DNA of 63,729 bases, filler included, from Reclinomonas americana ATCC 50394 (GCA_048213135.1; 4 parts of 3 records of this genome joined end to end with filler, not necessarily neighbours in it); one strand, 5' to 3'. Shown: positions 7,101 to 60,663, numbered from the whole stretch's first letter. The notes: a model not told the origin generated them from the letters alone. Translations and numbers: made by a program.

Positions 7101-10100
7101 NATCACGCACGAGCTCGGTGCGCGGCAGCATTGTGGGTAGCCGCGCGACGTGTGTACGGTGCTGCGGTCTTTCTGGAAGGCCATCTGAAGACAGTCGAGG
7201 CTGGCGACGATGCGATGCTGGTTGCAGACCTGCGGTATGCGTGCGCGACGTGCCTGCAGAGCATTGGCCGCCACTCCGATGCCGCGCAGCTGCATCGGGA
7301 GGTGTTGGCTGTGCGGCGTGACGTGCTTGGTGACAGACATTTGGACACGATTTCGTCCATGGGCAGTCTCGCCGTCTGCATTAGGGCCTCCGGCGACTTG
7401 CCTGCAGCCGAGCGACTGTTTCGCGAGGTGCTTGAACTGAGGCGAGAGGTGCTTGGCGACCGACATCCAGACACGATGGCCCACATGAACCATGTCGCCC
7501 ACTGCATGCATGCCAGCGGCGACTTTGCCGGTGCTGAGCAGCTGTGTCGCGAGCATTTGGCTTTGAGGCAGGAGGTGCTGGGTGACCGCCATCCGGATAC
7601 GCTGTTGGCCATGAACAATCTTGCCTTCGGCATTCAGGCCGCTGGCAAAGTTGCCGAAGCCGAGCAACTGTATCGAACGGCGCTGGTGATGCAGCGTGAG
7701 GTGCTTGGTGATAGGCATCGGGACACGCAGCTGTCCATGAGCAATCTTGCCCGCTGCTTGCTGGAGGGCGGCAATGTCGCTGAAGCGGAACGATTGTCTC
7801 GAGAGTTGTTTATGTTGAAGAGCGAGGTTCTTGGCGACGAGCATTCGGATACGCTGTCGTCTATGGACTATATCGCCAGCTGCATCCAGAGCAGCGGTAG
7901 TAATCACCGCGAGGCCGAGCGACTGTATCGAGAGGTACTGACGTTGAGACGCGAGTTGCTTGGCGAGAAGCACCCGGATACGCTTGCCTCCATGGACGAT
8001 TTGGCCATGTGCATCCGCACAAGCGGCCAGAATCTCGACGACGCCGAGCAATTGTGTCGAGAGGTGTTGGCTCTTCGACGGGGAGAGCTCGGTAAGAAGC
8101 ATCCGAGCACGTTGGCGACTGTGAATTGTCTCGCCAGCTTCATGAAGGATCGTGGCAAGTTTACTGAAGCCGAGCGTCTGTATCGGAAGGTGTTTCAGTT
8201 GCAGATGGAGGTGCTCGGAGCCCAACACCCTGCCACGCTGACATGTAAGCACAATCTTGCCGTCTGCTTCCACAAGAGCGGCAATCTCACCGAAGCCGTG
8301 CGCCTGTATCGGGAGGTTTTGTTGTTCCTGCGCGGTGGGTTTGGAGTCCGACATCCGGACACGCTGAAATGCATGCGCAATCTTGCCAACTGTCTCAACG
8401 ACAGCGGCAATGTCGCCGAGGCCGAGCGATTGTATCGGGAGCTTCTGGCGTTGACGCGTGCGGTGCATGGTGACAGGCATCCGGAAACGCTGGAATCCAA
8501 GTGCTGTCTCGCCATGTGTGCCAACAACAGCGGCAACCTCGCCGAAGGCGAACGACTGTATCGAGAGGTGCTGGCCGTGAAGCGTGAGGTGCTTGGCAAC
8601 AGGCATCCAGACACGCTGGCTTCCATTGACAGTCTCGCCGTTCTTGTCCGACACAGGGGCAATGCTGTGGAGGCCCAGCGTCTGTTTCGGGAGGTGTTGG
8701 CGGTGAGACGAGAGGTGCTTGGAGACAGGCATCCGAACACGTTGTCGTCCATCCACAACGTCGCTCGGGGCATCGACGCCAGTGGCGATCTCGCAGAAGC
8801 CGAGCGCCTGTATCGGGAGCTGTTGACATTGATGCGTGTGGTACATGGTGACAGGCATCTGGACACGCTCAAGGTCATGAACAATTACGCCATCTGCCTT
8901 CAGCTGAGGAATAATCTCGCCGAGGCAGAGCTTCTGCATCGGGAGTTGGTGGTGTCGATGCGTGAGACGGTTGGTGAGCATCATCCACAGACGCTGGAGT
9001 CTATCTACATGCTCGCCGTCTGTCTTCGAGCACACGGCAAACTCGCCGAGAGCGAGCCACTGCTCCGGGAGGCGTTGGTATTGAGGCGCAATGTTCTTGG
9101 TGACAAGCATGCAGACACGCTCACCTCCATGAACACGCTCGCTCTCTGCCTCCAGGACAGGGGCAATCTCGTCGAAGCCGAGCAATTGTTTCGCGAGGTG
9201 TTGGCGCTGAGGCGTCAAGTGTTTGGCAACAGACATGAACACACGCTGGTGTCCGTCTGTTGTCTCGCCATCTGCATACAGGCTGTCGGCCAGTTCGCCG
9301 AAGCCGAGCGACTGTATCGGGAATTGTTGGCACACGGACGTGAGGTGCTCGGTGATCTGTACGCACAGACACTGATATCGATGAACATCCTCGCTCTCAG
9401 CGTTCAGGAGAAAGGTCACTTCTCTGAAGGCGAGCGACTGCTTCGAGAGTTGTTGGTGTTGCAGCGCGAGATGGTCGGTGACCGGCATCCGAACGTGCTG
9501 ACGACCCTGAAGAATCTCGGCAAGTGCGTCTACAAGAGCGGCAACCTCCCCGAGGCCGAGCGACTGACTCGGGAGGTGCTGGCGTATCAACGTGAGGTGT
9601 TTGGTGACCGGCATCCGGACACACTGGAGACCATGGACAATATCGCTGTGCTCATGAAGGACACTGGCAACCTTGCCGAGGCCGAGCGACAGTATCGGGC
9701 GTTGCTGGCGTTGAGAAAAGAGGTGCTCGGCGACCGGCATCCAGTCACGCTGACGACCATGAGCGATCTCGCCCACTGCGTTGTGCTTCGCGGCCACTTC
9801 ACCGAAGCCGCGCGACCGTATCGGGAGACGTTGGAGTTGCATCGTGCGGTGCACGGCAACAGGCACCCAGACACACTGACGTCCATGTACAACCTCGCCG
9901 TCTGCATGCTGCCGAGCAACAACTTTGCCGAAGCCGAGCCACTGTTTCGGGAGGTGTTGACATTGCGGCGTGAGCTCCTTGGCGACAAGCACCCAGAGAC
10001 GCAGGTCGCCGTGTGCAGTCTCGCCTATTGCACCTTTGTCATCGGCAACACCACGGAAGCCGAGCAACTGTGTCGGGAGTTGTTTGCGTTGAACCGTGAG

Positions 10101-10206
10101 GTGTTTGGCGACCAGTGTGCACCGCTCCTCGTGATCATGTACAACCTCGCCATTCGTGTCCGTGGAGGCGGCACCAGCGCCGCCGACGCCGAGCGGCGGT
10201 TCCAAA
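7101..10206 (+). CDS. TPR array (~24 x 42 aa, kinesin-light-chain-like) of NLR1; contig placed in inverted orientation
   Basis: Uninterrupted ORF with consensus AEAERLYREVLALRREVLGDRHPDTLxSMxxLAxC and 23 HP-type linkers. The start (T)AT CAC GCA CGA joins flush and in frame to the minus-strand end at 10952. Confidence 0.9.
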
Positions 10207-10951: not shown

Positions 10952-13900
10952 AGACGCTGCGGTCCACCCCGTCACTGCTCTGTTCATGAAGCCACGTTGC
11001 AGCCGCCACCGCCACTTCAGCTCCGAAATCGCGGGCGGGAAGGCGCCTCTCCACCAATCGCGCCAAGCGCGACATGCCGTCGAATCGCATCTTTGCCACA
11101 GCAAGCGATGTGCCGCTGTTCTCGTCCCACAGGCGCCGTACCAGTGATGGCAGCTCGTTCCACATCACTCGCAGACACGGTCGAATATCGCACAGGATGT
11201 CATCGTTGATGCGATGCTCGTCAGTACGCACCAGTCCACACAGAACACAACTCAACACCATCTCACGATACGGTGCAAACAGATGAACGTCAGGATCCCC
11301 TGCTGTCAGCCACTCTATCACGACGTCGTGCACCCCATACTGCGCCGTTGACGGCAGGACTTCCCCGCCAGTCAACATCACCATGCGATACAACGCGTCG
11401 CACGATTCTGCCGAAGTGGACTGTACCAACATTGACCGCTGAAGCAACTCCAGCGCCTCCACCACGTCACCTTCACCGTCGCCTTCTCGGGCCTCGATGT
11501 CTTGCAGCCACGAGTTGACGCCGGTTGATGGAGCACCACGCAGAGCCAACCGAACCAGCAACGACACCGTCCGAGCCGTCGCATGAACTCGCCTCTGCTG
11601 CAATCCCGCGACCAACATCAGCACGTGCCGCGTCAGCGGCGTGCATTGAGCCAGACTTTCGGTCAGCAGCTCTTCCAGCGACAGTGCTCGCGTCTCGGCC
11701 AGACGTGTCGCCAAAGTCTCCAGTGACAGTCGAGCAAGCATCCTGCAAATAACACATGTCACTTGAGTTTTTCATGCACGCAAGGAGCAGAAGAGCCACA
11801 CGCACCTCACAAAGAGAGCCACACGGAATGCCTGCGGCTTGTCCAGTGCCGCTGCCGTCACCTCGCGGCAAATTTCTTCCGGCGCCTCCATCTGCTGGCG
11901 CACATACTGCGCCACATCGTCGGCCTCCACCTCGCCCACCGACATGTGGAGCACTACTGCCGAGCTCAACAGAGCCGAGCGCTGCAATTCTTCGGCCACT
12001 TGCTTGAACCGCGTGGTCACGATCACCAGCGGGGCGGCCATCAACAGGGAACCTGCGACGAGACGGAACAAACCAAGATAATCAGTCAACCATGAAGTCC
12101 AACTTGAAAGCAACACAAGAAAACGAGAAAAAGGAGGAAATGACAAGACTCGAATCCACTAATCACGGTGAATGCTCTTTCTCTCTCACTCCCTGTCACC
12201 CAGCGTGAGAGGTGTGCCCACCCACTGTACTGCGCTGTGTACTTGTCCGCCAAGTCGAGCATTTCGTGCTCACTCACTCACAAACACACATCAGACAGAC
12301 ACGCACCTGCAGGGGCGAGTCCGCAGACGCCTACACGTCGCACCACATCCACGACTTGACTCCAGTGGCCGACGTTGTCGAGTAACAGAACGCCGCGACT
12401 GTCCTTCATGAGGTGGCCGAGTCGACTGCGCAGCATGTCCATATTGTCGGCCTTCTCCCCCGCCTGGATGTCGGCCAGTAGCTGGCGACTGGATTGCACG
12501 GATGTCATGGCGCTGGCGAATCCTCGAAGCCCGCTGTTGAGGACCTCCGAGGTCTGTGTCAAAGGGAAGAATGGGAAGGGAGAGGGAGAGGGAGACGAAG
12601 AGGGAGAGAGAAGGAGAGGGAGAGGAAGGGGGAAGAGAGGGGGGGAGGAGAAGGAGAATCGCATTAACCACAATGTGAACTTCATAACGACTGACGCTGC
12701 GTACTCACCGACGTGTATTGGCTTGCGTCCGCCGTGTGACCATGCATGTCCGCGTACAGGGCCGAACCACGCCACTTTTTGCGCTCCATCTCCGCCACGA
12801 TCAGCTGGGCCAATGTCGTCTTTCCACTCCCTCCTTCGCCAGAGAGCACAACCACGCCGAGCTTCTTGTCTGCGAGAAAGACAGTGAGAAGGAGAAGAGA
12901 GAGGAGGAGGGGGAGAAAGAGGAGGTGAAGGAGGAAAGGACGAAAGAGAAGGAGGAAGAGGAGACGCAGAGGGAGAAAAGTAGAAAAGAAAAAGCAAAGC
13001 AACAAAGAAGAACACGAGGAAAGAAGTGAACGAGAAGGTGGTGAGAAGGAGGAGGGGGAAAGGAGGANNNNNNNNNNNNNNNNNNNNNNNNNNNNNNNNN
13101 NNNNNNNNNNNNNNNNNNNNNNNNNNNNNNNNNNNNNNNNNNNNNNNNNNNNNNNNNNNNNNNNNNNNNNNNNNNNNNNNNNNNNNNNNNNNNNNNNNNN
13201 NNNNNNNNNNNNNNNNNNNNNNNNNNNNNNNNNNNNNNNNNNNNNNNNNNNNNNNNNNNNNNNNNNNNNNNNNNNNNNNNNNNNNNNNNNNNNNNNNNNN
13301 NNNNNNNNNNNNNNNNNNNNNNNNNNNNNNNNNNNNNNNNNNNNNNNNNNNNNNNNNNNNNNNNNNNNNNNNNNNNNNNNNNNNNNNNNNNNNNNNNNNN
13401 NNNNNNNNNNNNNNNNNNNNNNNNNNNNNNNNNNNNNNNNNNNNNNNNNNNNNNNNNNNNNNNNNNNNNNNNNNNNNNNNNNNNNGGAGGAGGAGAAGAA
13501 GAAGAAGAAGGAGAATGAGAAAACAGGAGGAGGAGGAGGAAGAGGAGGACGCAGAGGAATAAGAGGGAGAGGAGAGGAGACGTGGAGGGAGAAAGAAGAA
13601 GAAGAAAAAGAGAAAAGAAGAATTGACATTAATCGAAAAGGCAGTGAGAAGAAGAACAAGAAGAAGAAGAAGAGCAAGAAGACGAAGGAGGAAGGAGAAG
13701 AAGAAGAGGGAGAATGTGGAGGCGGAGGAGAGAAGAATAAGAAGAATGAGAATGAGGAAAACAGAGGAAGAAGACGAGAAAGAGGAGGAAGGAAGCAGAG
13801 AAGAAGTCGAAGATAGAAAAATGGAACAGAACGACAAGGTGGTGGTGAGGAGGAGGAGGAGGCGAACAAGAAGAAGAAGGAAGAAAAGAAAGAAGAATTT

Positions 13901-14918: not shown

Positions 14919-17014
14919 GGTGGTGGTGGTGGTGGTGGTGGTGGTGGTGGATGTCGTTGGTGCGTATCTGAGTTGCTCACCGTCGACTTATCGCGAGAGA
15001 AGAAGCGGCGACAGCTTCATGGAGATGCAATAGGTTCACGGTTGCGGAGCTGTGCATTGCCTTGCTCAGCTGTTCCTCCTCCTCCACCTATCACCGCCAC
15101 CCGCCGACCTGGGCCAGTACTTCTTCATCGGCTGTCGACCTCCACCACCGCACTTGCGCATCCTCCAACACGAAGCAGCGCAACACAAACATGGGCAGCG
15201 GCTCCCCACAGTCCTCTTCGTCTCCGCCGCCGCCATCCACCACGCGCAGCATCTCCTCCAGTGCATCCAACGCCTCCTTGGTTGCGTCCCGCTCAGCAGC
15301 GGCACCTGCAAAGTCTGGACTCCACACGGTCAACAACAAAGTGCATGTAGTGCACGCAGGAGAACTAGAATATGACGGAACTGGGCGCCCACAAGAAGCA
15401 GGTCCCGTTGGAGGCCGCCGACACGACGTAGTTGTCGGGCGTGCATGCCACGGCCGTGACTTGGGCCGCGTGGAGGGGAAACACGCAATCCTCGCGACCG
15501 CTGGTCAAATCCCAGGCGCGGATGGTGCCATCTATTGAGGGGAAGGAGGAGGGGCGGGGGGAGGAGAAAGAGAAGAGTCAAAAAGGGACATGAGAGGGAG
15601 ACGAAGAACGGTGAACTATGGTGGCGCGTGAGTGACAATTGAAAGCAGTGACAGAGAAAGAGAAAGCGAGACAGTGAGCGAGAAAGGCGACATCAAAGCA
15701 GAGTAAGATGTGGAAACGGAAAGCAAAAACAGCAGCGTTCTCGGCTCGCTCTTTCACTGCACTCAGAGACCATCATTCACCCTCTCTCTCTCTCGGGCAT
15801 ACACATCTCATTCCCTGCTCGAGCTCAATACTCAGCCTTCGCGCTGTGCACTGTTAACCAGACACCGCAGCAGGCGAACGAGAGAGAACGAGGGAGTGCG
15901 AAAGACGACATAAAGGCGCAGTGAGAAGTGGAATCGGAAAGCAAGGAGAGGCGAGAAAACGGCGAGAGTGAGTGAGCTGCAGCGTTCTCTTGCCCTCTGC
16001 CTCGCTCTTTCACTGCTCATTCACTCCCTCCCTCTCTCTCTCTGTACTCATTTGCGTGCTCAATGCTCCACCCCTCTCGTTGCTGTCAGCAACTCACGAC
16101 AACCGCGCCCTTCTTGTCAGCCTCAACATGTCTCCCTCTCCCTCTCCCCTCTCATGCTCTACTGACTCTTTCTCTCTCTCTCTCCCTCCCTCTCCCTCTC
16201 TCCCTCCCTCCACCCTCCTTCCCCTGTCCTCCCACCACTCACCCTTCGACCCGCTCACCACAAACCGCCGATCCACCGTCACCGTCACCGACACCACCGC
16301 CTCACGATGCGCACTCCCCATCATCATCTCCCGCCTGCCGCCCGTCTCCAACGAGTGCACATGCACCGAACCATCCACCAAGCCCACCACCACCGTCAAA
16401 TCATCCACCAAACCCAGGCAACACAGCTCACGCACACACGGCACCCTCCGCACCACCTCCAGCATATTCATGCGATACACATGCACCTCCGGCTGCGCCC
16501 ACCTCGTCACCGTCGCCACCATCACAAACACACCATCACTGGTCACCCGCGCGTCGCGAATCTGTCGCGCAGCCGGAATAACGACCCCACGCACCTTCTT
16601 CCCCGCACGCACAGTCACCAGCGCGCCCGGTTCCATGCAATCGCGATGCCCGTGCGCAAATACAACTGTGTTGCATTCACTACTGCTCACCGCCAGTGCC
16701 ATGACCGACTGCTGTCGACGACCGGGGAAGGCCCACACACGCGACGTTGTATCCCATAAGCACACGCGATCACCGCCAGTCAACACCTGCGACGTCGACG
16801 CTGGCACAAAGGCAACTCGCGTGACTGCTGCATCACTGACAACAGCAGAGTAGAGCACGTGCGAGGAGTGCCGCTCAAAGACGCAGAGATGACCGCCGGT
16901 GGTGCCAGTGGCGATGCGCTGACCGCATGAGGAGACGGCGACACAGAGCACATGATGTGGTGCAGGTAGATCGAGAGGGAAGCTGCGAGTGGCCGCGGGC
17001 ACAGTGACGCTCAT
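14691..17014 (-). CDS. WD40-repeat protein with C-terminal extension
   Basis: VLCVAVSSCGQRIATGTTGGHLCVF; VLTGGDRVCLWD; VSGSK|DGTIRAWD across intron 16242-15532. The extension beyond 15381 depends on a GTTCCGT donor; otherwise the gene stops at TAG 15365. Confidence 0.7.
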
Positions 17015-17154
17015 TGAAATTGTCTGGTGTGTCCTCGTTGGCCACAGCAACAAGTCGCGTGTCGTTTTTGTGGGTCCAGCTACAATATGGTGTAGTCACG
17101 TACACAGCTGCAGTGTTGGGAAGGTGGGGGCTTGGCGCACGCGACGTCGGAGAA

Positions 17155-19571: not shown

Positions 19572-19829
19572 TTGGAGGGAAAGGGAGAGAGAGGGAAGGG
19601 AAATGAAGGTGCAATCGTGATGCAATGGGGGGAAGGGAGAAGAGGAGAGGGAGAAGATAAGGCGGGAGGGATGGTGGCTATTGCGCCTTGGGTTGGCACT
19701 GTGTCACGACAAACACTCCATGTGCACCTACCGTTGTGCCTTGCCTTCCCCTCCTCCTCCTCCTCCTCCTCTCTCTCTCTCTCTCNNNNNNNNNNNNNNN
19801 NNNNNNNNNNNNNNNNNNNNNNNNNNNNN

Positions 19830-19841
19830 TTAATTAATTAA
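19830..19841. other. Artificial scaffold linker TTAATTAATTAA (also at 47764-47775 and 57822-57833)
   Basis: Identical six-frame-stop 12-mer centred in 100-nt N runs. Confidence 0.95.
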
Positions 19842-20455
19842 NNNNNNNNNNNNNNNNNNNNNNNNNNNNNNNNNNNNNNNNNNNNGGGAAATGAAGGTGC
19901 AATCGTGATGCAATGGGGGGAAGGGAGAAGAGGAGAGGGAGAAGATAAGGCGGGAGGGATGGTGGCTATTGCGCCTTGGGTTGGCACTGTGTCACGACAA
20001 ACACTCCATGTGCACCTACCGTTGTGCCTTGCCTTCCCCTCCTCCTCCTCCTCCTCCTCCTCTCTCTCTCAGCTCTCTCTCAGCTCTCCTTCCGCAATGC
20101 AGCACGATAACCATCCCTTCCAAACCGAAAAGGGCCTCTTTCCTTTCAATCCTTCCAAGGGAGACACGTATTCGCTGCATCACGATAATCACTTCGTCTC
20201 AATTCGCAATCGCAGTCATTCCCCCCACCCTCCCTCTTCCCTGCTAGTCTCCTTCCCTTTCTCTTCCTTTTGGGTGATATTTGTTCGCACTGCATCACGA
20301 AGGAGGCAACAAGAAAGGTGAGGGAACGAAGAGAGATTCCTGCTTCTGAACTCTATGTGAGTTGTCCCTGTTCCTGGTGACGACCAGCTGTTGCTTATCT
20401 ATCAGTCGCTCGATTCTTTTACTTCCCCTCAATCAGCTTACACGAGTATTTAGAG

Positions 20456-30400: not shown

Positions 30401-31574
30401 GTGGCTTGGGAGCCAGTGGAGGTGGCAGGTGTGGCCGACACCGATTTCGATGCCAGCGAGAGGCGACGGATGATGTGCGTGGTGTAATCGGCAATGAGCA
30501 CCGATGCAGTCGATGCATCGAAGGCGAGGTGAACAGGCGAGTTGAAGCGTGCCACAGCCAGAGCACTGCCGTCGGCTGATCCACTCACGCCCGCCGCACC
30601 ACCAATGGTGCTCACGGACGAGTCTGACACTCGGAGTTGCCGCACGGTGTTGTTGGCAGACTGCGTGGACCAGAGGACAGTCAGAATCGAGAAAAGAGAT
30701 GCTCAGAGAGTGTGGTGAGTGGAAAGATACACAACATCGGCAACATAGATGACGTTGTTTCCTGCGTCGTAAGCCAGTCCGATCGGCGTGTTGAATCGGG
30801 CAAACTTTCCTGAATCGCGTGTACCCACAGCTCAGCGCGAACGTGAAGAACCAGATCGGGTACCCACCAGATCTAGTTGGATCGGATGAACTCACCGGCG
30901 GCATCCGTGGATCCAGACAAGCCGCTTGCTGAACCCGCCACCGTTCCCACCGTCATCGCCAACGTGTCAATGGCGCGTATGGAGTTGTTCACACGGTCAG
31001 CTGCAATGAAGTACAAACAATGAGGACGTGCGGGGTGTCATCTCTGCGCTTCCCCTCTCCGGATCCCCTATCTACACTCACCAACATACAGCGTGGAACC
31101 GACGAGAAGCACGCCGTTGGGACCACCGAATCGCGCCACTCCCGCGCACGCACCATCGGCGGTGCCACTCACGCCCGTAGAGCCACAGAAGGTCGTCGCC
31201 GCACCGGCATACGTCACTCGCCGAATCGTTTTGTTGAGCCAGTCGCCCACATACACTACCTGATTCGCGGCATCCACTGCCACTCCCGCAGGCTGGTTGA
31301 AGGAGGCCGCTGTGCCCGTGGCATCGGCACTTCCCGACGCTCCATTGCCCGCCAGTGTGGTGACCTCTGCCGCTGCAGTGACAGCACGCACGGCGTGGTT
31401 TGTCAGCTGTGAGAGACGCAGAGTCAGAGAGTCAGCAGAATGTGCGTCTGTCATACGTGGTCTTCTCTCCCACAACACACTCACATCGGCGACATAGACA
31501 GTTCCCGTGGTTTGATCAATGGCGAGGCCAGCGACACTGCGAGTATGTGTGAGTGCGTGAAGAAGAGAGAGATA

Positions 31575-31624
<50 letters not shown>

Positions 31625-32586
31625 AAAGACAGCGAGTATCCCCACGCACTTTTTGAACTGAGCTGCGTGCCCTGTGCCGTCCAGCAGGCCGCACGTGCTT
31701 CCCGCAAAGGTGGTCACTGTTGCTGCAGGTGTGACGCGCCGAATGCGGCAGTTGCTGCCCTCATCATCAAATAGTGTGTGTTTGGGACAGAAATGTCAAA
31801 ACGAATGCTGACAAACCTGAAGTCGCCCACATACACGTTGCCCATGGCGTCAAAGACCAGCCCCTGTTGAGAGAGCACGCACAGTGTGTCAGCGAAGGCG
31901 CATGGCAGGCACAGCAAGGACACGCGCGCCATCGTGATCACCATTGGGTTTGCAAATCTTGCACTTGCTCCCACGCCATCCGTCGTTCCCGAGGCGCCTG
32001 CTGTGCCCACGAAGGTGGAAACAGAGGCGGAGGAGACGCCAATGGCGGCAGCATAGGGGGACCACTCGAACGAGTTGGTGGTGCCGCCGGCGACATTGTT
32101 GGGATTGACCCACGCATTGAGAGTGGTGGATGAGCCAGAGATGTTGTCAGCGACGGCGGTGGTCACTGTCTGGGCGTCTGCAGTGTGGTGCAGAGAGAAG
32201 AGTGAGGTTCGCGTTTAAAGCACAAATGTCGTGGAATCCGAATTCGAACAAGCGCTGCGCTGCGCAGCGCTGCAGCATGCGCAGCCACGCAGCGCTGCGC
32301 ATGCGCGGTGGCGTACGCGCCCACGTGGTAAATATGCGATGACACGCAGTGCATTGCAAAACGCACAGACCCCCGAGCATGATTGAGCGCACCCACACCC
32401 ACGAACCCACACACACGCATGCGCATGCGCAGCGATGATGCGCACATGCGAACACGTGGACACGCAACTTGCAGAGACGACGAGTGAGTGGACGAGCAAG
32501 ACGATGAAGAGCGTAGCGATAGAGAGCGTATGCGTCTGATGCACTGAATAGCACAAGTGGCAACGAGACACAATTCGCGCGCTCAT
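24440..32586 (-). CDS. Large secreted/surface protein: signal peptide, 2x [FN3-like with inserted NHL propeller + cadherin-like], further cadherin-like and IPT/TIG-like domains, C-terminal PAN/Apple domain
   Basis: Signal peptide ..LFIVLLVHSLVVSA|NA-QT. NHL repeats (DG.G.AA.FN.P.G.A.D...YVAD..N..IR). Cadherin-like N.APT.I.....TTD.D....FTYS..GG.....TD.G. PAN CQFE..D..GG...CCEAC...CRSWTF...CTLK at ~24735-24560. The 3' end is uncertain. Confidence 0.75.
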
Positions 32587-43982: not shown

Positions 43983-46900
43983 ATGTCGCATATCAGCGAT
44001 GAAGAGTTGCGTGCTTCCATGTCGAATGTGCGCCTCTGTTGTGCGCACGCTTGCTTACGTGTGCGTGCGCTGGTGTGTGTGTGTGAGAGAGAGAGCAGTT
44101 TCCTTCGTATGCATGTGCACTATGTGCGTCATTTTTTCGAGTGTGCATGCTTGCGAGTGCTCACTTGCTTGTTCATCTTGTTTGCTCGTGTGAATGCATG
44201 CGTGCGTATACTTGGATTCGCTTGCGTGTACACTCACTCGTCTCCCTCGCCGGCTTCGCAGGTCGAACTACATTCGAGCCACCAAGGTTGTGAGTGGTGT
44301 CGCCGCGCGCGCACTGCGTGCGCTCGTGCAGCAAGAGCTGCCCGCATTCGTTCGCCACTGTGCGGCAGAAACTGAGGCATCGGCAGCGGGGAAATTGGAG
44401 TTGATGAAGGAATGGATGAAGAAGCCTGGCAGACGAGATAAACGGTGAGAGTTCTTCTCCGCATGATTGTGTCTCGATGTGCCTCTTTGTCTCTCTGTAC
44501 TCCTGCCAGTTTTCCACTTCTATCCTTCTCTTGGTTTGTCTGTGTGCATGTGTGCGTGTGCGTGCTCATCAACGTGCGTTGTTGTACAGCGCCGCACTGC
44601 AAGGGTTGCAACAAGTCCTTTGTTTCGATTCGGCGGCCGCGGCCATGGAGGACTGGCAACGTGCGCTGGACGCCGGCGAGCCTGCTCCCTCGTGCAGCTC
44701 CTTCGACATCTCATGGCTGACCTCGGTGTTGCTGAACGCATACTGGACGCCTGAAGCGAGTGCTGCTCCTCCGCTCGATGTGCGCCAGCTGATCTTCGAC
44801 CCATTGCAGGTGCGGAGTGTTTCTTTCCTGGGTCGCCTCTGTTCATTCCTCACGTGTCGTGCAATGCAGCGCGATGCGGTTCAACAACTACGTGAAGTGC
44901 GGAATGGCTTCATGCATCTTCCTGACCCGCGACTGTCAGCCGCACAATCGCGCGAACTTCTTGGTGACAACATCATAGAAGGGCGAGTAGTGCATCTGCT
45001 GCGGCAAGCGCGTGTCCCGCTCGAAGAAGCGTTTGTGAAAGAGATTAATGCAATTCGCTTCGGTGCGTTGCATGTGTGTCCATGAGAGTCTTGGTGATAT
45101 CGGCACTCAACGTCGTTTGTGTTGAGCTGCAGGTGTGACACCGGCGAAGCGTGCAATCGTATATAGAAACATGGGCCATCTACATGGTTTGCCATTCCCC
45201 AGTCGTACCGCGAATGCTGAGCGACTCGCGGAGCGATTGCTTGAGTGCGATTCTGGTGAGTTAACGTGCGTCTGCTTCATCACTTCATTGTTGTGGCTCA
45301 CATGTGTTTTTGTTGGATTATCCCCCAAGGAGACACATTGGGAGTGCTCGTTCTCTCTGGCGAGGGAGGGAGTGGAAAGACGACACTGGCCCAGCTGATT
45401 GTGTCGGAGATGGAGCGCAAAAAGTGGCGTGGTTCGGCCCTGTTCGCGGACATGCATGGTCTCACAGCCGATGCGAGCCGATACACATCGGTGAGTGCAC
45501 ACGTTTAGTTGTTGACGAGTGAATATTGTCTCATATCTATCTCTCTCCCCCTCTCGCTCTCCCCCTCGCTCTCCCCCCCCCTCCTCTCTCTCCCAGACGA
45601 CGGAGGTGCTCAGCGGCGGGCTGCGTGGATTCGCCAGCACCACGACATCCGTGCAATCCAGTTCACAGCTGTTGGCCGAGATCGAGGCGTGGAAGGAAAA
45701 CGGCAACATAGACATGCTGCGCAGTCGACTTGGCCACTTCATGAAGGACAGTCGCGGTATTCTGCTGCTCGACAACGTTGGCACAGGGAGTCAAGTGTTG
45801 GATGTATTGCGAGGCACGGGCGTATTGCACGCTGACTCAGGTGCGTGGCATCCTGATTGGGGTGCACATTGACCAGTGATTCGAGCAATAGCGCACGCAC
45901 ACAAAGCAAAAGCAGTGGGTAGGCACGGCGCTCAGATTGTTTCTATCGCTGGGTGAGATGGAGAGAGCATGAGAGAGAGAGAGAGAAAGAGAGACAGCAC
46001 ATGCAGGGTGATTATTGGATCTGAGGCAGATTTTATCACTTCTTCCTTCGGAGGTGGCTTCTACTCTTCGTGCGTGCAGTTGCACATCTATCCACATGAA
46101 CGTTCGATACAGACGATAAATTAACTTGGATGTATTTGTCTCGTTTCAGATTCCCCGCTGATGGCCGCCCCACTGGTGATTGTGACCACGCGGTTCAAGC
46201 GGGTGGCCGATGAACTGCAGCGCTCAGTATTTTTGAGCACGGGAGTGGTGCTCCACATGTCGGTGGGCGATTTGGAAGCCGACGATGTGGCGCAGTGTGT
46301 GCGACAGCAGATTGATGCGCCAGAAGAGATTTGCCGTGAATTGACGGCAGCGACGGTGGAGAAACCGCAGGCATTCCGCGTGGCTCTCTGCTTGAGGTTT
46401 GTCGATTGTTCATTTGTTGCACTCTCGGTGTTTCTGAGGAAGAATTGCTGCAGCATGCTCGCCCAACAGTCACTGGAGACCTTGACGAGCAGCGCGTTGG
46501 CGGCATGTCTGGCCGAGACGCGAGCACGGGCAATTGATGGGCTGATGAACAGAAACCTGGCAGAGTGCACGCCGTTGACGCGACAGGTGCTCTTGTTAGT
46601 CTCGGCGTTGCAGCAAATGCGAGTGCATGCGACGGCTCGCACTGTGGCGTTGTTGGTTCGGTTGATGCGGCGTGATGCTCCAATAACCGATGCTTGGCTG
46701 CAAGACCTTGTGGTCCGAGACGGAGTGGAGGAGTACCGTGACGGTGAAGGCGATGTGGTGGAGGCGCTGGAGTTGCTTCGGCGCTCCATGTTGGTACAGT
46801 CCACGTTGGTGGAATCGTGCGACGCGTTGTATCAAATGGTGGTGACTGGTGGAGAAGTGCTGCCGTCGAGGGTGGAATATGGAGTGCACGACATCGTGAT

Positions 46901-47719
46901 GGAGTGGTTGACTACAGGAGAACGTGAGAGGGAGCTGTGTCTGTATCGTGATGCTGTGAGGGATGTTGTCCTGTTTGGACTGGCACGTGCTGACGAGTAT
47001 AGCATCAACGATGACGTGCTGTGCGATATTCGACTGTGTCTGCGAGTGATGTGGAACGACCTACTGTCTGTAGTACAGCCTCGGTGGAACGGAAGTTGCA
47101 TCTCGCCTGCTGTTGCAAAGATGCGATTCGATGGCGTTTCGCGCTTGGCGCAGTTGGTCGAGGATCGCCTTCCCGTCCACGATTTTAGAGGCGATGTGGC
47201 GGTGGCGAGTGCGACGTGGATTCGTGAACAGAGCGGTGACGGAGTGGATCGCGGCGATTATCACAAACGAGCGCGGTGCGCGGGAGGATTATTGATGAGC
47301 GCACGCCGTGCTGGTGATGCCGCGGACTATCTGGAAGGCCATCTGAAGACTGTCGAAGCTGGCGATGATGTGATGCTGGTCGCTGACCTGCGGCACGTAC
47401 TTGCGACTTGTCTGCGGGACGTGGGCCGTCTTGCCGAAGCCGAGCGACAGTATCGGGAGGTGCTTGGTTCGAGGCGTGAGGTGCTTGGTGACCGACATCC
47501 TGATACACTGACATCAATGGTCGGTGTCGCCAGGTGCATGTACGCCACCGGCAATCTTGTCGAAGCCGAGCGACTGGTTCGCAAGGTGCTGGAGTTAAGG
47601 CGAGAGGTGCTTGGTGATAAACACCCGGGTACGCTATGGTCCATGAGCGCTGTCGCCGCCTGCATCGCAGCCGGTGGCAACCTTGTCGAAGCTGAACGAC
47701 TGCATCGTGAGGTGTTGGC
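43983..47719 (+). CDS. NLR2: HEPN (DZIP3/Swt1-like) + STAND NTPase + TPR
   Basis: Phase-consistent exons: NYIRATKVV..ALRAL; SFDISWLTSVLLN; LREVRNGFMH (RxxxxH at 44900-44917); Walker A GEGGSGKT at 45359-45382; ILLLDNV; LVIVTTR; YGVHD; TPRs from ~47400. Confidence 0.85.
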
Positions 47720-47819
47720 NNNNNNNNNNNNNNNNNNNNNNNNNNNNNNNNNNNNNNNNNNNNTTAATTAATTAANNNNNNNNNNNNNNNNNNNNNNNNN
47801 NNNNNNNNNNNNNNNNNNN

Positions 47820-47845
47820 CGTCGTGTGCGTGTAGTGTGTTGTGA
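47820..47845 (+). CDS. Last codons (TSCACSVL*) of transglutaminase-like paralog B, on an inverted contig
   Basis: A|CG TCG TGT GCG TGT AGT GTG TTG TGA joins flush to the minus-strand end at 48554 and matches paralog A's SCACTVL*. Confidence 0.75.
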
Positions 47846-47907
47846 AGAGCAGGCGAAGTGAAGCCTGGAGGAACACAGCAGTCGATTGCAATTCCAGAAG
47901 TGATTGT

Positions 47908-48533
47908 TTATGATATCACACAAGCACATCTCTGCGAGTCTCTTCGATTCCCCTCTATTTCGCGAATTCGCGCTTCCACCAGTTGTGTGTCAGAGTGCGC
48001 GTCACCAAGTACCTCCCGTCTCAACATCAACACCTCCCGATACAGTCGCTCGGCTCCGGCAAGGTCGCCACTGGCCTGGATGCAATCGGCTAAGCTGTAC
48101 ATTGACCATAGAGTGCTTGGGTGCCTATTACCAAGCACCTCTCGCCTCAAAGTCAACACCTCACGATACAGTCGCTCGGCTTCAACGAGATTGCCACTTG
48201 CTTGGACACAGTAGGCAAGATAATACGTCGACTCAAGCGTATTTGGATGCCGGTCACCGAGCATATCACGTCTCAATGTCAATATCTCGCGATACAGGTC
48301 CGCAGCTTCCACAAATTTGCCGCTTGCACGAATGCATTCAGCAAGACTGCTCGTACACACGAGCGTGTCTGCATGCCTGTTACCAAGCACCTCACGCCTC
48401 ACAGCTAACACTTCACGAAACAGTTGCTCAGCTTCGGCGAGATTGTCGCTTTTGCGAATGCAGCTGGCGAGATTGGTCATCGAATTCAACGTGTCTGCAT
48501 GCCTGTCACCAAGCACCTCACGCCTCAACGCCA
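47908..48533 (-). CDS. C-terminal TPRs (~5) of NLR2 ending in CACVIS*, on an inverted contig
   Basis: Same 42-aa repeat. The contig end TGGC overlaps the ..TTGGC end at 47719 in frame. Stop TAA at 47908-47910. Confidence 0.8.
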
Positions 48534-56758: not shown

Positions 56759-57626
56759 TTATACAACCAGCGTCAGCGCCGAGCGGTCCTCGTTGACCAG
56801 CCACATGTTGAGCTCCTCGTACTCGTCGAGGCAGGCTTGCAGCAGCTTTTGCGAGAGGCCTTGCGCCGTGAGTTGCGGGATGATGTCGGCCAGTCTGGGA
56901 GGGGGGAGAGAAAAGGGGAGGGGTGAGTGGTGGGGGAGAAGGGAAGGGAGGGCGAGAGGGTGGGAGGAGGGGAGGGAGCACTCACCGCACAGTCCGACTG
57001 TCCTTGTCCTTGGCCTCCTGCATGATAATGTGGTAGATGCGCGAGATCGGGTCTTGCTTCCTGAAAACAGCCCCCCACGAATGAGCAATAACGCACACAC
57101 AAACAAAGATGGGGGCGCCCCGAGTCGCATCCACACTCAACTGCATGCGCCGCGTGTCATCCTCGTACAGTGACGACTTGGAGACATTGATGAGGCGTAC
57201 GGCCTCTTGCACATCGTCGGGCGCCACCAGATCCGACAGATTGAGACGAGCGCGGGCCTGTGCCAGGCGCACCATGGAGAGCAGCGAGCGTGCCGTGGTG
57301 TACGAGTGCTCCTGCTCGCGCTCGTCAGTGCGCAGCTGCAGGTACGCCGAAATGAGCGCGTCCTCGGCCTCCGGCGGCACCAGCGGCTCGAACGAGCGAG
57401 CACGCGCAATGAATGCCCTGAGCGGAGCGGCAGTGAGTGAGTGGACAGGAAACTGACGAGAGGAAGCGAGAAAAATGAAGACCTCATCGTCGCCGCGTCC
57501 ACCAGCTCGTGCATGTCGCGCCTCTCCGGCGCCACTTGCGTACGATGCACGTGCGTCACGTGCTTGGCCAGGTTGTAGTCGGCCTCCGTGTTTGGTCGGT
57601 CCACCATGAGGAAGAGGACGTCGAAA
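56759..57626 (-). CDS. MCM7: DNA replication licensing factor MCM7, 3' exons
   Basis: FDVLFLMVDRP...D..LAKHVTHVH; MRAFIARAR; YTTARSLLSMVRLAQARARL; DVQEAVRLINVSKSSL; C-terminal CLDEYEELNMWLVN..LTLVV*. Confidence 0.9.
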
Positions 57627-57715
57627 CTGGAAAAAAAAAGGGAAGGGGCGAGTGAGATCAACGAGACAGGAGAGTGAAAAGGAAAGGGGATGAAACAGAA
57701 GAGAAGGAGGCTGAG

Positions 57716-57766
<51 letters not shown>

Positions 57767-57959
57767 AGAGAGACGACNNNNNNNNNNNNNNNNNNNNNNN
57801 NNNNNNNNNNNNNNNNNNNNNTTAATTAATTAANNNNNNNNNNNNNNNNNNNNNNNNNNNNNNNNNNNNNNNNNNNNGATTGTTGTCCTCTGCACATGCA
57901 TGCACACCCATGTCAGTCTCCTTCTTCTCCTCAACCCAAAACTGGGGGGAAAACTCACG

Positions 57960-60663
57960 TTCGCAGAGGTAACTGAGCAGGCTGGTCTGGTCCGAGGCAG
58001 CGCACGACGCCGTCGCACTCGCCTTGCCCTGGAACTCTGGCGTAAAGTCGTCGACGAGGCACATGGAGAGGTTGTCGGCGCGGCCGTAGCTGGCCGACTC
58101 GATCTTCACGTGGTAGCCGTCGGGGTAGCCATTAGTCGGTGTGCAGTCGACCAGCATGGCAGAGCCTTCGCACACCGTCTTGGAGTGCAGCGGGTACTTG
58201 TCGACGCACTGATAGTCCGTGGTCACGCCCAGTGGCTGTGGGGAGGAGAAGGGCGATGTGAGTTTCTTGCTGTCACAACGACGACAGCGGGGGAGATGGC
58301 TTTGCGACTCACCAGCTGCTCACTGTTGCCATTGTCGCCGTCGTCGTCATCGTCGCCGTCGTCACCATCATCGCCGTCGTCGCTGTTGCAGGCATCGGCA
58401 AGCTGCTCCGCATAGTTCTTCCAGTTCAACACCTTGCAGGCGGCAAACACCGGACCCTGCAGCTTGCGCTTGGCCTCCTGCGCGGCCTTGACTTGCGCGT
58501 CGGCACTGGACTTGGCCTTGCTGGCGGCCACCACTGCCGCTTGCGCGTCGTCGGCCTTCTTCTGTGCGTCCTTGGCCTGCTGCTGCGCCGCGTCGGCGGC
58601 CTTTTGCTTGGCATCGGCGTCGGCCTGCTTGGCAGCCGCATCGGCCGCCTTCTTCTTGGCCTCCTCGTCGGCCTTCTTCTTGGCGTCGCCGGCCTTGGCC
58701 TTGGCGGCATCATCGGCCGCCTTCTTCGCGTCGTCAGCCGCCTTCTTCGCGTCACTGGCCGCCTTCTTGGCGTCGTCGGCAGCGTCCTTGGCGGCGGCAG
58801 CAGCCTTTGTCGCATCCGCGGCGGCCTTCTTGGCGTCAGCCGCCGCCTTGTTCAGGTCGTCGGTGGCCTTCTTGGCCGCCTCGCGTGCCTTCTTCAACTC
58901 CTCCGCGGCCTTCTTGGCGGCGGCCTCGTTCTCGGGCGACGCGTTGGCGCACTGCTCACGCAGCACATCCATGGCGTCGGCGCGGCACAACACCTCCAGA
59001 TTCAAGCACTTGCTGCGGCGGCACTCGACCACACACTTGCGCTGCGCGGCGGCCTTCTCGGCCTGGCACTTGGCGCGGCAATCGGCACCGCTCTTGCCAG
59101 CCGGGCACTCAGAGGCGCACTTCTACGAAGCGTGGGGGAAAGTGTGAGTGAAAGCGGAGAGAAAGGCGAGTGAATAGTGACGCAACTCTCTGACTGGTGG
59201 TGGCACGGCACGACTTGCGGCACGACTGGCCACACGTGCGGCAATCGGTGCGGCACTGCTTGCGAGCTGCGGCGCAGGCCTTGGGGGTCTGCGAACCGTC
59301 GGCCAAGCAGAGCGCGAACTGAGCGCGGCAGCGACGGCGGCAGGCGTGCTTGTCGAACAGCAGGCCGTGACGATCCTCGTCACCGTCCTTGTCCTTCTCC
59401 TTCTTGTCATCGTCGTCGCGGTCCTTGTCGTTGCGGTCGCCGCGCAGATTGGTGCTGCTGCTGCGGTCCGTGTCGACGAATGACTGCGACGAGAGCGGGC
59501 ACGTACCCGGCTCCACAAAGCCCACAGTGCTCTTCACCACCTGCACCGTGTGCATGGCGTCGCACTCGAGCGACAGCGGATCACTCGGGCACGTCACAAT
59601 CGAGGCACTGGTGACGCTGCTGCTCTGCACGTCGCGGAACACCAGGTCGCCCTGGTTCGCGCGGCACGCCCACGTGATGGTGAGCTTCTTGGGCAGGCCG
59701 GTGCAAGGGTCCCACCATGTGGTCGGCACCACGCAGCTCGACAGCTCGCGCGCCATGCACATCTCCACCAGGTTCAGGTACAGGTCCAGACTGTGTCGTG
59801 GGGGAGGAGGAGAAGGAGAGTGAGAAGGGAGGGGGAAGGAGAAGGGAAAGGGAGAGTGAGGGAAAGAGGACGAGGGAGAAGGGGAGAGAAGAGGGAGAAG
59901 GCAAGGATGTTGCAAGCACAGGATAAGACAAGAGGATTGAGAGGGAGCAGGGGGGAAGGCAGCACGCAGGGGAGGACGATGAGGCCAGCGAGAGAGAGGG
60001 GGGACAGGAGGAAGAGGAAGATGATGAGGAGGAGGAGAAGGAAAGGGCGGGAGAAGGAGAAGGGAGAGGAAAGAGACAGAAGGAGAAGACAAGAGGATTG
60101 AGAGAGCAGGGCGCAGGGGAAGGAGAAGAGGGCAGAGAGAGAGAGAAGGAGAAAACGAAGCAGAAGAAGAAGAGAAGGAGAAGGAAGAAGAAGAAGGAGG
60201 AGGAAGAGGAGGGAGATGGTGAGGAAGAAGAAGGAGCAGGAGAAGGAGGATGAAGAGGAAAGGGAGAGAAGGGAAAGAGATAAGAAGAAGGAGAGCGCGA
60301 GGAAGAGATGCTGGAGACAGATCCTCAGAAGGAGCGGAGATAGAGAGGGGGGTGACAGAAGCAGAGACGCAACGACGAGCACTCTCCAGCAGCCGTGGAG
60401 CCAATCTCGCGACCGCACTCGCCCTCCGCAGCCGGCCCAAACGTGGCCGCAGTGATGTGAGGATGGGCGTTGTCGGGGCACTGCAAGTTGATCCAAGGCC
60501 CGTCGGCACACGCCTGCGAGGTCGTCCATTGCACATCGGCGCGGGGTCGGAAAAACAGAGCGCGACCTGCCGCTGTTGTCGGCGGCGCATCCGAGCTGGC
60601 AACGGCCACTGACGCGAGCGCGATGATAAGCAGCACAACGGCCGCGCACGTGGCGGTCACCAT
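57960..60663 (-). CDS. Secreted protein with SUEL/galactose-rhamnose-binding lectin-like domains, a Cys-rich segment and an Ala/Lys/Asp coiled coil; 3' end lost in gap
   Basis: Signal peptide MVTATCAAVVLLIIALASVAVA; C......L.C......I..A.FG ... DPCTGLPKKLTITWAC; third domain VCEG...KIESASYGR; (KKAADDA)n at ~58470-58930. Confidence 0.7.

Follow-up and report, generated by a model that had tools for sequence, protein, structure and literature searches.

HEPN domains are known as effectors of systems centred on STAND NTPases, as described in PMC8195603. In animals, DZIP3-type HEPN domains occur fused to TPR, NACHT, CARD, DEATH and LRR modules, and Table 1 of PMC3710099 records expansions of this type in Nematostella, oyster and Capsaspora. 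The same table lists bacterial fusions of Swt1-type HEPN domains to a STAND ATPase, TPR and S1. In the pearl oyster, more than 50 NACHT proteins carry an N-terminal DZIP3-HEPN domain, with C-terminal repeats that include TPR and WD40, according to PMC9646362. The Rx4-6H motif is found in 194 of the 202 HEPN domains counted there, mostly as Rx4H with Asn after Arg. Here we describe a gene on the plus strand of a 63,729-base stretch from Reclinomonas americana ATCC 50394 (GCA_048213135.1), the whole of which is called the window. With a probability of roughly 0.68, the locus is one intron-rich eukaryotic gene for a STAND receptor resembling the NOD-like receptors (NLRs), with a HEPN-like head, an NB-ARC NTPase and an array of TPR_12 repeats.

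The HEPN-STAND-repeat architecture is already known, and what is different at this locus is the NB-ARC engine and the extreme divergence of the sequence. Bivalve and cnidarian HEPN-NLRs, described in PMC9646362 and the DZIP3 row of PMC3710099, share with the gene an Rx4H head of HEPN or HEPN-like type in which Asn follows Arg, a STAND NTPase, C-terminal repeats, which in the animal proteins are LRR, TPR or WD40, and expanded, fast-evolving paralogues. The animal proteins differ in having a NACHT engine where the present gene has NB-ARC; PF18738 has no match here, and phmmer returns no relative. Bacterial Swt1-HEPN-STAND-TPR proteins, compared here through the PMC3710099 table, likewise place the three modules on one polypeptide, and the R..V..LRE.RN.[FW].H block of the gene aligns to bacterial HEPN_Swt1, whereas the present gene belongs to a eukaryote and is interrupted by seven introns. 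The gene resembles the NB-ARC-TPR proteins known from bacteria, fungi, algae and protists in the succession of GxGGxGKT, LLLD, TTR and VHD followed by TPR_12/TPR_10 repeats of the kinesin-light-chain/NPHP3 type. The gene departs from them in its HEPN-like head, which is absent even from its own paralogue, and in a very divergent helical ARC part. A literature search for HEPN, NB-ARC and TPR together returned a single item, a preprint about NACHT proteins of bacteria; architectures of this kind may be listed in the additional files of PMC3710099. The first-pass annotation of this DNA, generated by a model from the sequence, knew of no described prenylated HEPN-NLR-TPR protein. As a claim of novelty this is too strong, given the combinations of HEPN with NACHT or STAND and TPR tabulated in PMC3710099 and the pearl-oyster proteins of PMC9646362.

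Eight predicted coding exons and seven introns, all with canonical GT..AG ends, span positions 44262-47719 of the plus strand in one open frame. The revised spliced product has 878 residues, contains no stop and is broken off in mid-repeat at 47719 by a linker. The features of the gene and the evidence that places them are as follows.

43983-44020, plus strand: candidate first coding exon, with the start ATG, 12 codons and 2 bases; donor uncertain.
44262-44444, plus strand: exon 2, predicted to encode the first portion of the helical HEPN-like domain at the N-terminus; open frame between a canonical acceptor and a canonical donor.
44590-44809, plus strand: exon 3, predicted middle of the HEPN-like domain, carrying FDISWLTSVLLN; placed by splice sites.
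44810-44869, plus strand: predicted intron of 60 bases, in frame and stop-free, placed by its GT..AG ends and a T-rich tract; the paralogue lacks this part.
44870-45062, plus strand: exon 4, predicted catalytic-helix part of the HEPN-like domain; placed by hhalign against HEPN_Swt1.
44900-44917, plus strand: codons for RNGFMH, an Rx4H motif in which Asn follows Arg, predicted to be the active site of an RNase; from the sequence and a profile alignment.
45133-45255, plus strand: exon 5, linker ahead of the P-loop; placed by splice sites, 52% identical to the paralogue.
45330-45490, plus strand: exon 6, with the Walker A motif GEGGSGKT at 45359-45382; aligns to the P-loop of the NB-ARC profile.
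45597-45840, plus strand: exon 7, with the Walker B motif ILLLD at 45759-45773; aligns to the lLLilDdv block of the NB-ARC profile.
46150-46396, plus strand: exon 8a, in which TTR (RNBS-B-like) occupies 46185-46193 and the predicted helical ARC part begins; aligns to liTtR of the NB-ARC profile.
46397-46453, plus strand: intron of 57 bases, in frame and stop-free, inside a large open reading frame (ORF); placed by comparison with the paralogue.
46454-47719, plus strand: exon 8b, with the predicted remainder of the helical and winged-helix part of NB-ARC and, after a spacer, TPR_12 repeats (about 2.5 units, from about 47380); cut by the linker.
47720-47819, no strand: artificial join of 100 bases, consisting of 44 N, TTAATTAATTAA and 44 N, which cuts the gene.

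Splicing is supported because the NTPase motifs sit in the right order on three different exons, and the simplest reading of the N-terminal exons is that they are spliced to the STAND NTPase and the TPRs. The guanine-plus-cytosine (GC) fraction is 0.54-0.63 in the exons and 0.44-0.56 in the introns. Comparison with the paralogue locates the 57-base intron: conservation collapses exactly between GAG|GT and CAG|, the flanks are 85-90% identical, and the paralogue's counterpart of the intron has a stop in frame as well as indels of 2 and 4 bases. The introns of 60 and 57 bases, two of the gene's seven, are stop-free and in frame, with the consequence that ORF maps hide domains and insert about 20 false residues. 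Over the 256 codons compared with the paralogue, at 68% identity, the ratio of nonsynonymous to synonymous substitution rates (dN/dS) is 0.53, a value that fits a coding, fast-evolving gene. At the 5' end, the ATG at 43983 and about 40 bases downstream of it are conserved at the 5' end of the paralogue. Exon 2 requires a phase-2 donor, and AT|GTCGAA at 44020/44021 suits both the gene and the paralogue; a first exon from ATG 43983 is provisionally the probable start.

Several claims of the first-pass annotation concern this structure. Its joining of the exons within 44262-45062 to a STAND NTPase and TPRs agrees with the canonical splice sites and the single open frame predicted here. The LREVRNGFMH and FDISWLTSVLLN segments that it named are present, at model residues 141 and 99, whereas its literal pattern N..R....LR does not occur in the spliced product. 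It overlooked the intron at 46397-46453 within the large ORF. Its STAND NTPase followed by TPRs is supported, the NTPase being of NB-ARC type and the end of TPR_12 type.

The motifs GEGGSGKT, LLLD and TTR follow one another in the spliced product. Library family searches were run on contiguous exon pieces, and profiles of our own were used for the spliced sequence. On exon 6 alone, Pfam reports nSTAND3 (expectation value, E, of 2.6e-5), NACHT (8.2e-5) and NB-ARC (1.6e-4), all slightly below their cut-offs; NB-ARC on this P-loop exon reaches 21.4 bits against the Pfam cut-off of 23.5. An NB-ARC profile was built from the Pfam-matched segments of all 10 planctomycete matches (found in 7 of 301 genomes), and a NACHT profile from 20 domains out of 78 NACHT matches in 34 of 301 genomes. 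A hidden Markov model of the NB-ARC set scores 25.4 bits against the spliced NTPase part, a score that none of 3000 shuffles reaches (best 9.7). Alignment of the spliced NTPase to the same set by hhalign gives a score of 60.5 and a probability of 95% over 152 columns running through the P-loop, Walker B and TTR. With the NACHT profile only 27 columns around the P-loop align, and hmmsearch gives 12.3 bits as against 25.4 for NB-ARC. The NTPase is, by these sequence comparisons, NB-ARC-like and a better fit to NB-ARC than to NACHT.

Beyond TTR the sequence becomes highly divergent. Once the 57-base intron is removed, PQAFRVAL stands at the expected place of GLPL and VHD lies at model residues 601-603; the NB-ARC profile ends before both. 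These may be the GLPL-like and MHD-like motifs of the ARC part, respectively. The helical ARC part has no match in Pfam, NCBIfam, PADLOC or the PDB sequences. A metagenome scan with it gave 86 pattern matches, none of which encodes a relative, and a word-indexed search against longer proteins found no homologue. At the end of the gene, the Pfam families TPR_12 (E 7.3e-25) and TPR_10 (E 1.2e-20) match above their cut-offs, in units of 42 residues.

The N-terminal domain was compared with a purpose-built set of bacterial HEPN_Swt1 domains. Matches occurred in 46 of 401 genomes of Planctomycetota; of the 51 found there, 49 entered the set, one duplicate-like and one half-length match being omitted. 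A second bacterial phylum contributed all 8 of its matches, from 8 of 301 genomes, which gave 57 domains in total. With the first 30 domains, hhalign aligns the spliced N-terminus (205 residues) at a score of 25.83 (E 1.2e-3), which none of 242 shuffles reaches (best 20.7). With the 57 more diverse domains the score rises to 30.16 (E 9.2e-5, probability 59%), and none of 216 shuffles attains it (best 20.8). The controls score 10.3 for the reversed sequence, 13.0 for the NTPase part, 16.7 for the C-terminal part and 18.2 for the N-terminus against NB-ARC. Exon 4 alone gives 25.75 against the 57 domains (E 7.9e-5, 38 columns, 0/103 shuffles), and the alignment covers the RNGFMH helix and the next helix. 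RNGFMH, at model residues 145-150, falls on the RN..AH columns of the HEPN_Swt1 profile. Motifs of the Rx4-6H form are expected about 1.2 times per 200 residues at this composition, and the 878-residue protein contains 7; for RNxxxH the expectation is 0.008 per 200 residues, and it was found once, at the aligned place.

Many of the planctomycete HEPN_Swt1 matches are N-terminal in open frames about 1100 residues long. All four of the proteins fetched and examined are fusions to a DUF499 ATPase and not STAND-TPR proteins; such fusions correspond to the Ava_2192 type of PMC3710099.

Other comparisons lead to the same families. A search of the ESM Atlas with a 157-residue N-terminal stretch gave look-alikes at 0.93-0.91, and the best 30 include 10 HEPN_DZIP3, 4 DUF4559, 7 HEPN_Swt1 and 8 no-family clusters. 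These look-alikes are mostly mollusc and cnidarian HEPN_DZIP3/DUF4559 clusters, and the two families co-occur on the same proteins in the Atlas clusters. Exon 3 alone, which is outside the Rx4H motif, retrieves HEPN_DZIP3, DUF4559 and HEPN_Swt1 clusters at 0.89-0.83. Atlas look-alikes are leads, not tests. DUF4559 (PF15112), presumably the CXorf38 family, is also the lone Pfam match on exon 4 among 24,736 families, at E 0.18 and 11-11.7 bits against a cut-off of 27. The literature returned for DUF4559 was uninformative. The N-terminal domain is likely, though not proven, to be a HEPN domain of the Swt1/DZIP3/CXorf38 type, on sequence evidence that is concentrated on its catalytic half. The HEPN signature claimed at the outset is upheld for the stretch around RNGFMH, which the targeted profile test supports as a Swt1/DZIP3-like catalytic helix; it is not accompanied by a match at the Pfam threshold.

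The second copy of the gene family in the window bears on both the gene model and the status of the HEPN-like part. It lies in two pieces.

About 14440 to 10956, minus strand: N-terminal half of a paralogue of NB-ARC-TPR type, with an identity of 60-87% depending on the exon.
7104-10205, plus strand: TPR half of the paralogue with at least 24 repeats (TPR_10, E 4.7e-177), beyond a gap of 745 N.

Exon 8b of the gene is 60-68% identical to the paralogue. The two halves of the paralogue abut in protein coordinates (end 10956, start 7104) yet face opposite ways, and its TPR contig is probably misoriented in the scaffold. The paralogue shares the first exon and the first intron and continues with the linker exon ahead of the P-loop, with only about 290 bases between the two exons; the HEPN-like part of about 190 residues is absent. 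It runs intron-free and collinear across the position of the gene's exon 4/5 junction. Because the paralogue lacks those exons, the HEPN-like head is a module present in one copy and absent from the other.

A number of results weigh against the assignment of the locus to a HEPN-NB-ARC-TPR receptor. The splicing, the first exon and the 3' end of the gene are all predictions from sequence. The first-exon donor AT|GTCGAA is atypical beside the GTG[AC]G donors of the other introns, and if donor 45063 is not used the frame stops at 45086 and yields a HEPN-only protein. No HEPN family matches any contiguous piece at the Pfam threshold, with PF18738 and PF18731 unreported even at E 10, and PADLOC and NCBIfam report no family on any of the five pieces. 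When 1.84 billion representatives were searched by phmmer with the contiguous 157-residue stretch, the single match was spurious; this bacterial repeat protein shares just the word NAYWTP and was rejected as a homologue. Word-indexed searches of the HEPN stretch against longer proteins, and against proteins of similar length at E 10, found no homologue. Because no homologues were found, the HEPN-like domain cannot be checked by conservation. The significant HEPN_Swt1 alignment spans just 28-38 columns around the motif. Exon 2 alone aligns to a collinear N-terminal helix at a non-significant score, reached by 8 of 85 shuffles, and exon 3 alone is also non-significant against the bacterial Swt1 profile (4/90 shuffles). 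With the narrow 30-sequence profile, hmmsearch gives 5.5 bits, which 17 of 5000 shuffles reach. The ESM Atlas recognition value is 2144, below the 2300 mark, and the family-agreement heuristic returns "probably wrong" (2/10). Single-sequence AlphaFold2 prediction of the N-terminal stretch is all-helical with a predicted local distance difference test (pLDDT) score of 40 and a predicted template modelling score of 0.27, unusable as evidence of fold. Of the checks proposed in the first-pass annotation, Pfam gave no HEPN family at threshold and structure prediction gave no fold. In addition, a PDB sequence search with the HEPN stretch gave just chance mS26 matches at E 0.7-2.8, and PF18738, sought in 4 bacterial and 14 control genomes, had no match there.

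The remaining subject is a CVIS-ended fragment that lies just past the linker, and its value depends on what the linkers mean. The window is eukaryotic draft sequence, GC-rich (56%) and with numerous N runs. The 100-base linker occurs identically at three places, 19786-19885, 47720-47819 and 57778-57877, and separates four scaffolds. The third linker truncates a minus-strand MCM gene (MCM_lid at 56985-57776, E 9.9e-22). The missing upstream part of that gene is absent from the piece after the linker, where the minus strand reads differently. Because the MCM gene has no continuation there, the linkers are arbitrary joins, and order and orientation across them cannot be trusted; a linker as the marker of an ordered and oriented neighbour was rejected on the same ground.

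Elsewhere in the window, a WD40 ORF lies at 16097-17095 on the minus strand (E 2e-14) and an NHL ORF at 31071-31760, also on the minus strand (E 6e-7). These two, the TPR array at 7104-10205 and MCM_lid are the exceptions among 96 longer ORFs scanned, the other 92 matching nothing in Pfam at E 1e-4, a result in keeping with a lineage that is divergent, intron-rich and little sampled. Two ORFs of the last scaffold, at 57879-58319 and 58223-59122 on the minus strand, were inspected by eye: one resembles a Cys-rich lectin-type domain, and the other is a long low-complexity sequence rich in Ala, Lys and Asp. The first of the two, at 57879-58319, matches no Pfam family at E 1e-4.

The fragment itself can be described in one line.

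47908-48533, minus strand: orphan 3' end of a TPR_12 gene, with about 4.5 repeats, a short tail and CACVIS-TAA (TPR_12, E 4.2e-40).

The reading QRCACVIS-TAA is real, with the CaaX codons at 47911-47922 on the minus strand. The first-pass annotation had treated RCACVIS as the end of the gene's last exon. That placement does not hold, since the ORF is on the minus strand of the next scaffold, past the N44-TTAATTAATTAA-N44 linker. The ORF occupies a 714-base contig that opens that scaffold, and a 20-N gap ties the contig to unrelated sequence; no TPR or NTPase coding sequence was found upstream of the ORF on its own scaffold. When reverse-complemented, the contig starts in the gene's final repeat phase and codon frame, with an overlap of 4 bases. 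Outside the contig, its DNA is most similar to the last repeats of the gene (78% over 169 bases), as against at most 73% for the paralogue array; the units within the contig are about 71% alike. The TPR relatives of the tail found at 4 bacterial loci are kinase-TPR or TPR-only proteins and not NLRs. CVIS is a proven farnesylation box of ZAP-L, whose Cys is required both for targeting to the membrane and for activity against viruses (PMC8568172). The earlier suggestion that CVIS fits a farnesylation box is thus sound, whereas the single prenylated polypeptide built on it was an assumption that joined an ORF on the opposite strand of another scaffold to the gene.

The rival explanations concern both ends of the protein. 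At the N-terminus, the domain might be a lineage-specific helical adaptor or signalling domain rather than a HEPN RNase, with RNxxxH present by chance. Such a domain would account for curated HEPN models that all fall below threshold, a significant profile match of only 28-38 columns, exons 2 and 3 that are non-significant against the bacterial profile, a prediction of pLDDT 40 with no usable fold, and the general commonness of Rx4-6H, of which the protein has 7. We regard this as unlikely. The observed scores are reached in 0 of 242 and 0 of 216 shuffles, and the reversed and other-domain controls lie much lower; the match extends beyond the R and H to the residues flanking the motif and to the next helix. 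Exon 3, free of Rx4H, yields the same family leads, and the lone weak Pfam match is to a family associated with HEPN_DZIP3. Alternatively, the locus might make two products, a small separate HEPN-like protein that ends at the stop at 45086 when donor 45063 is unused, and an NB-ARC-TPR protein that starts downstream. The unspliced frame does end 8 codons past exon 4, the paralogue joins the shared first exon straight to the linker exon with no HEPN part, and stand-alone DZIP3-HEPN proteins are common in oysters (PMC9646362). A division of this kind is nevertheless highly improbable, given that donor 45063 (G|GTGCGT) and acceptor 45132 resemble the gene's other sites and keep the frame, that the paralogue is collinear across the exon 4/5 junction, and that the HEPN exons follow the shared first exon, with no second start exon seen within 45063-45330.

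At the C-terminus, the CVIS-ended TPR contig might be the misoriented 3' end of the same gene, which would make the product a HEPN-NB-ARC-TPR protein that is farnesylated, perhaps palmitoylated through the upstream Cys, and assembled at a membrane. Several observations agree with this. CVIS is experimentally proven as a farnesylation box in ZAP-L (PMC8568172), the tail ORF has TPR_12 repeats of the same type as the end of the gene, and the gene end and the reverse-complemented contig have 4 bases in common and the same repeat phase and codon frame. The tail is closest to the gene's last repeats (78% over 169 bases, at most 73% for the paralogue array), its own scaffold has no upstream TPR or NTPase coding sequence, and the paralogue halves at 10956 (minus) and 7104 (plus) provide a precedent in the window for a flipped continuation. 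Opposed to them is the position of the ORF on the strand opposite to the gene and past an arbitrary linker, the MCM gene at the third linker being not continued in the next piece. Nothing overlaps beyond the 4 bases. The shared phase is weak evidence, as contigs of this family break at the same repeat phase and the paralogue array ends (10205) at a distance of about 4 codons from that point. The window contains two or more family members that lack a 3' end, and the tail may belong to either or to a copy elsewhere. Finally, a paralogue array of at least 24 repeats means that much sequence is possibly missing between the gene and any tail. On this balance of sequence features, a link between the tail contig and the HEPN-NB-ARC gene, and with it the misoriented 3' end, is possible and in our view doubtful. 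The CVIS-ended TPR fragment is an unplaced piece of the HEPN-NB-ARC gene or of a paralogue, and the true C-terminus of the gene is probably outside the window.

The reading of the locus as one gene for a HEPN-NB-ARC-TPR receptor suggests a mode of action drawn from the behaviour of the families concerned. The N-terminus would be an all-helical domain of about 190 residues, whose C-terminal half resembles the RNxxxH catalytic helix and the next helix of Swt1/DZIP3/CXorf38 HEPN RNases, and the C-terminal TPR_12 array probably continues beyond the assembly break. By analogy with these families, the TPR array may keep the NTPase off until a ligand binds, and nucleotide exchange would then drive oligomerisation. 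Oligomerisation may pair the single HEPN domains of neighbouring protomers into the dimer on which HEPN RNases depend for a composite active site, and the resulting cleavage of RNA would serve as an abortive or antiviral response.

A further proposal is that the CVIS-ended fragment is the real C-terminus of the gene. In that case a HEPN RNase head would be carried by an NB-ARC-TPR receptor with a farnesyl anchor, which would oligomerise on an endomembrane and cut RNA at that site, and we judge this to be rather improbable. Double lipidation would possibly follow from the Ras-like Cys-x-Cys-a-a-X arrangement. Guanylate-binding proteins with CaaX tails are farnesylated antiviral proteins. ZAP-L offers a comparison in having an identical CVIS box at the C-terminus of an RNA-acting immune effector at endomembranes (PMC8568172); it differs in having no homology to the gene, and the CVIS box here is on an unplaced contig. 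A literature search on NB-ARC and CaaX, judged by titles and the beginnings of abstracts, revealed no prenylated NLR among the papers listed.

The gene by itself opens no new question, and a prenylated NLR, which the assembly does not support, would be the sole surprise for specialists. If it were true, a CVIS-anchored NLR would share the membrane-targeting logic of ZAP-L, in a eukaryotic lineage that has no detectable relatives in protein databases. If the HEPN-NB-ARC-TPR reading holds, the design of an RNase head on a STAND receptor, found in bacteria and marine invertebrates, would extend to an unannotated and very divergent eukaryote. The head would there be combined with an NB-ARC instead of a NACHT engine, beside a headless paralogue, and the pair would help to trace the exchange of effector modules on NLR scaffolds.

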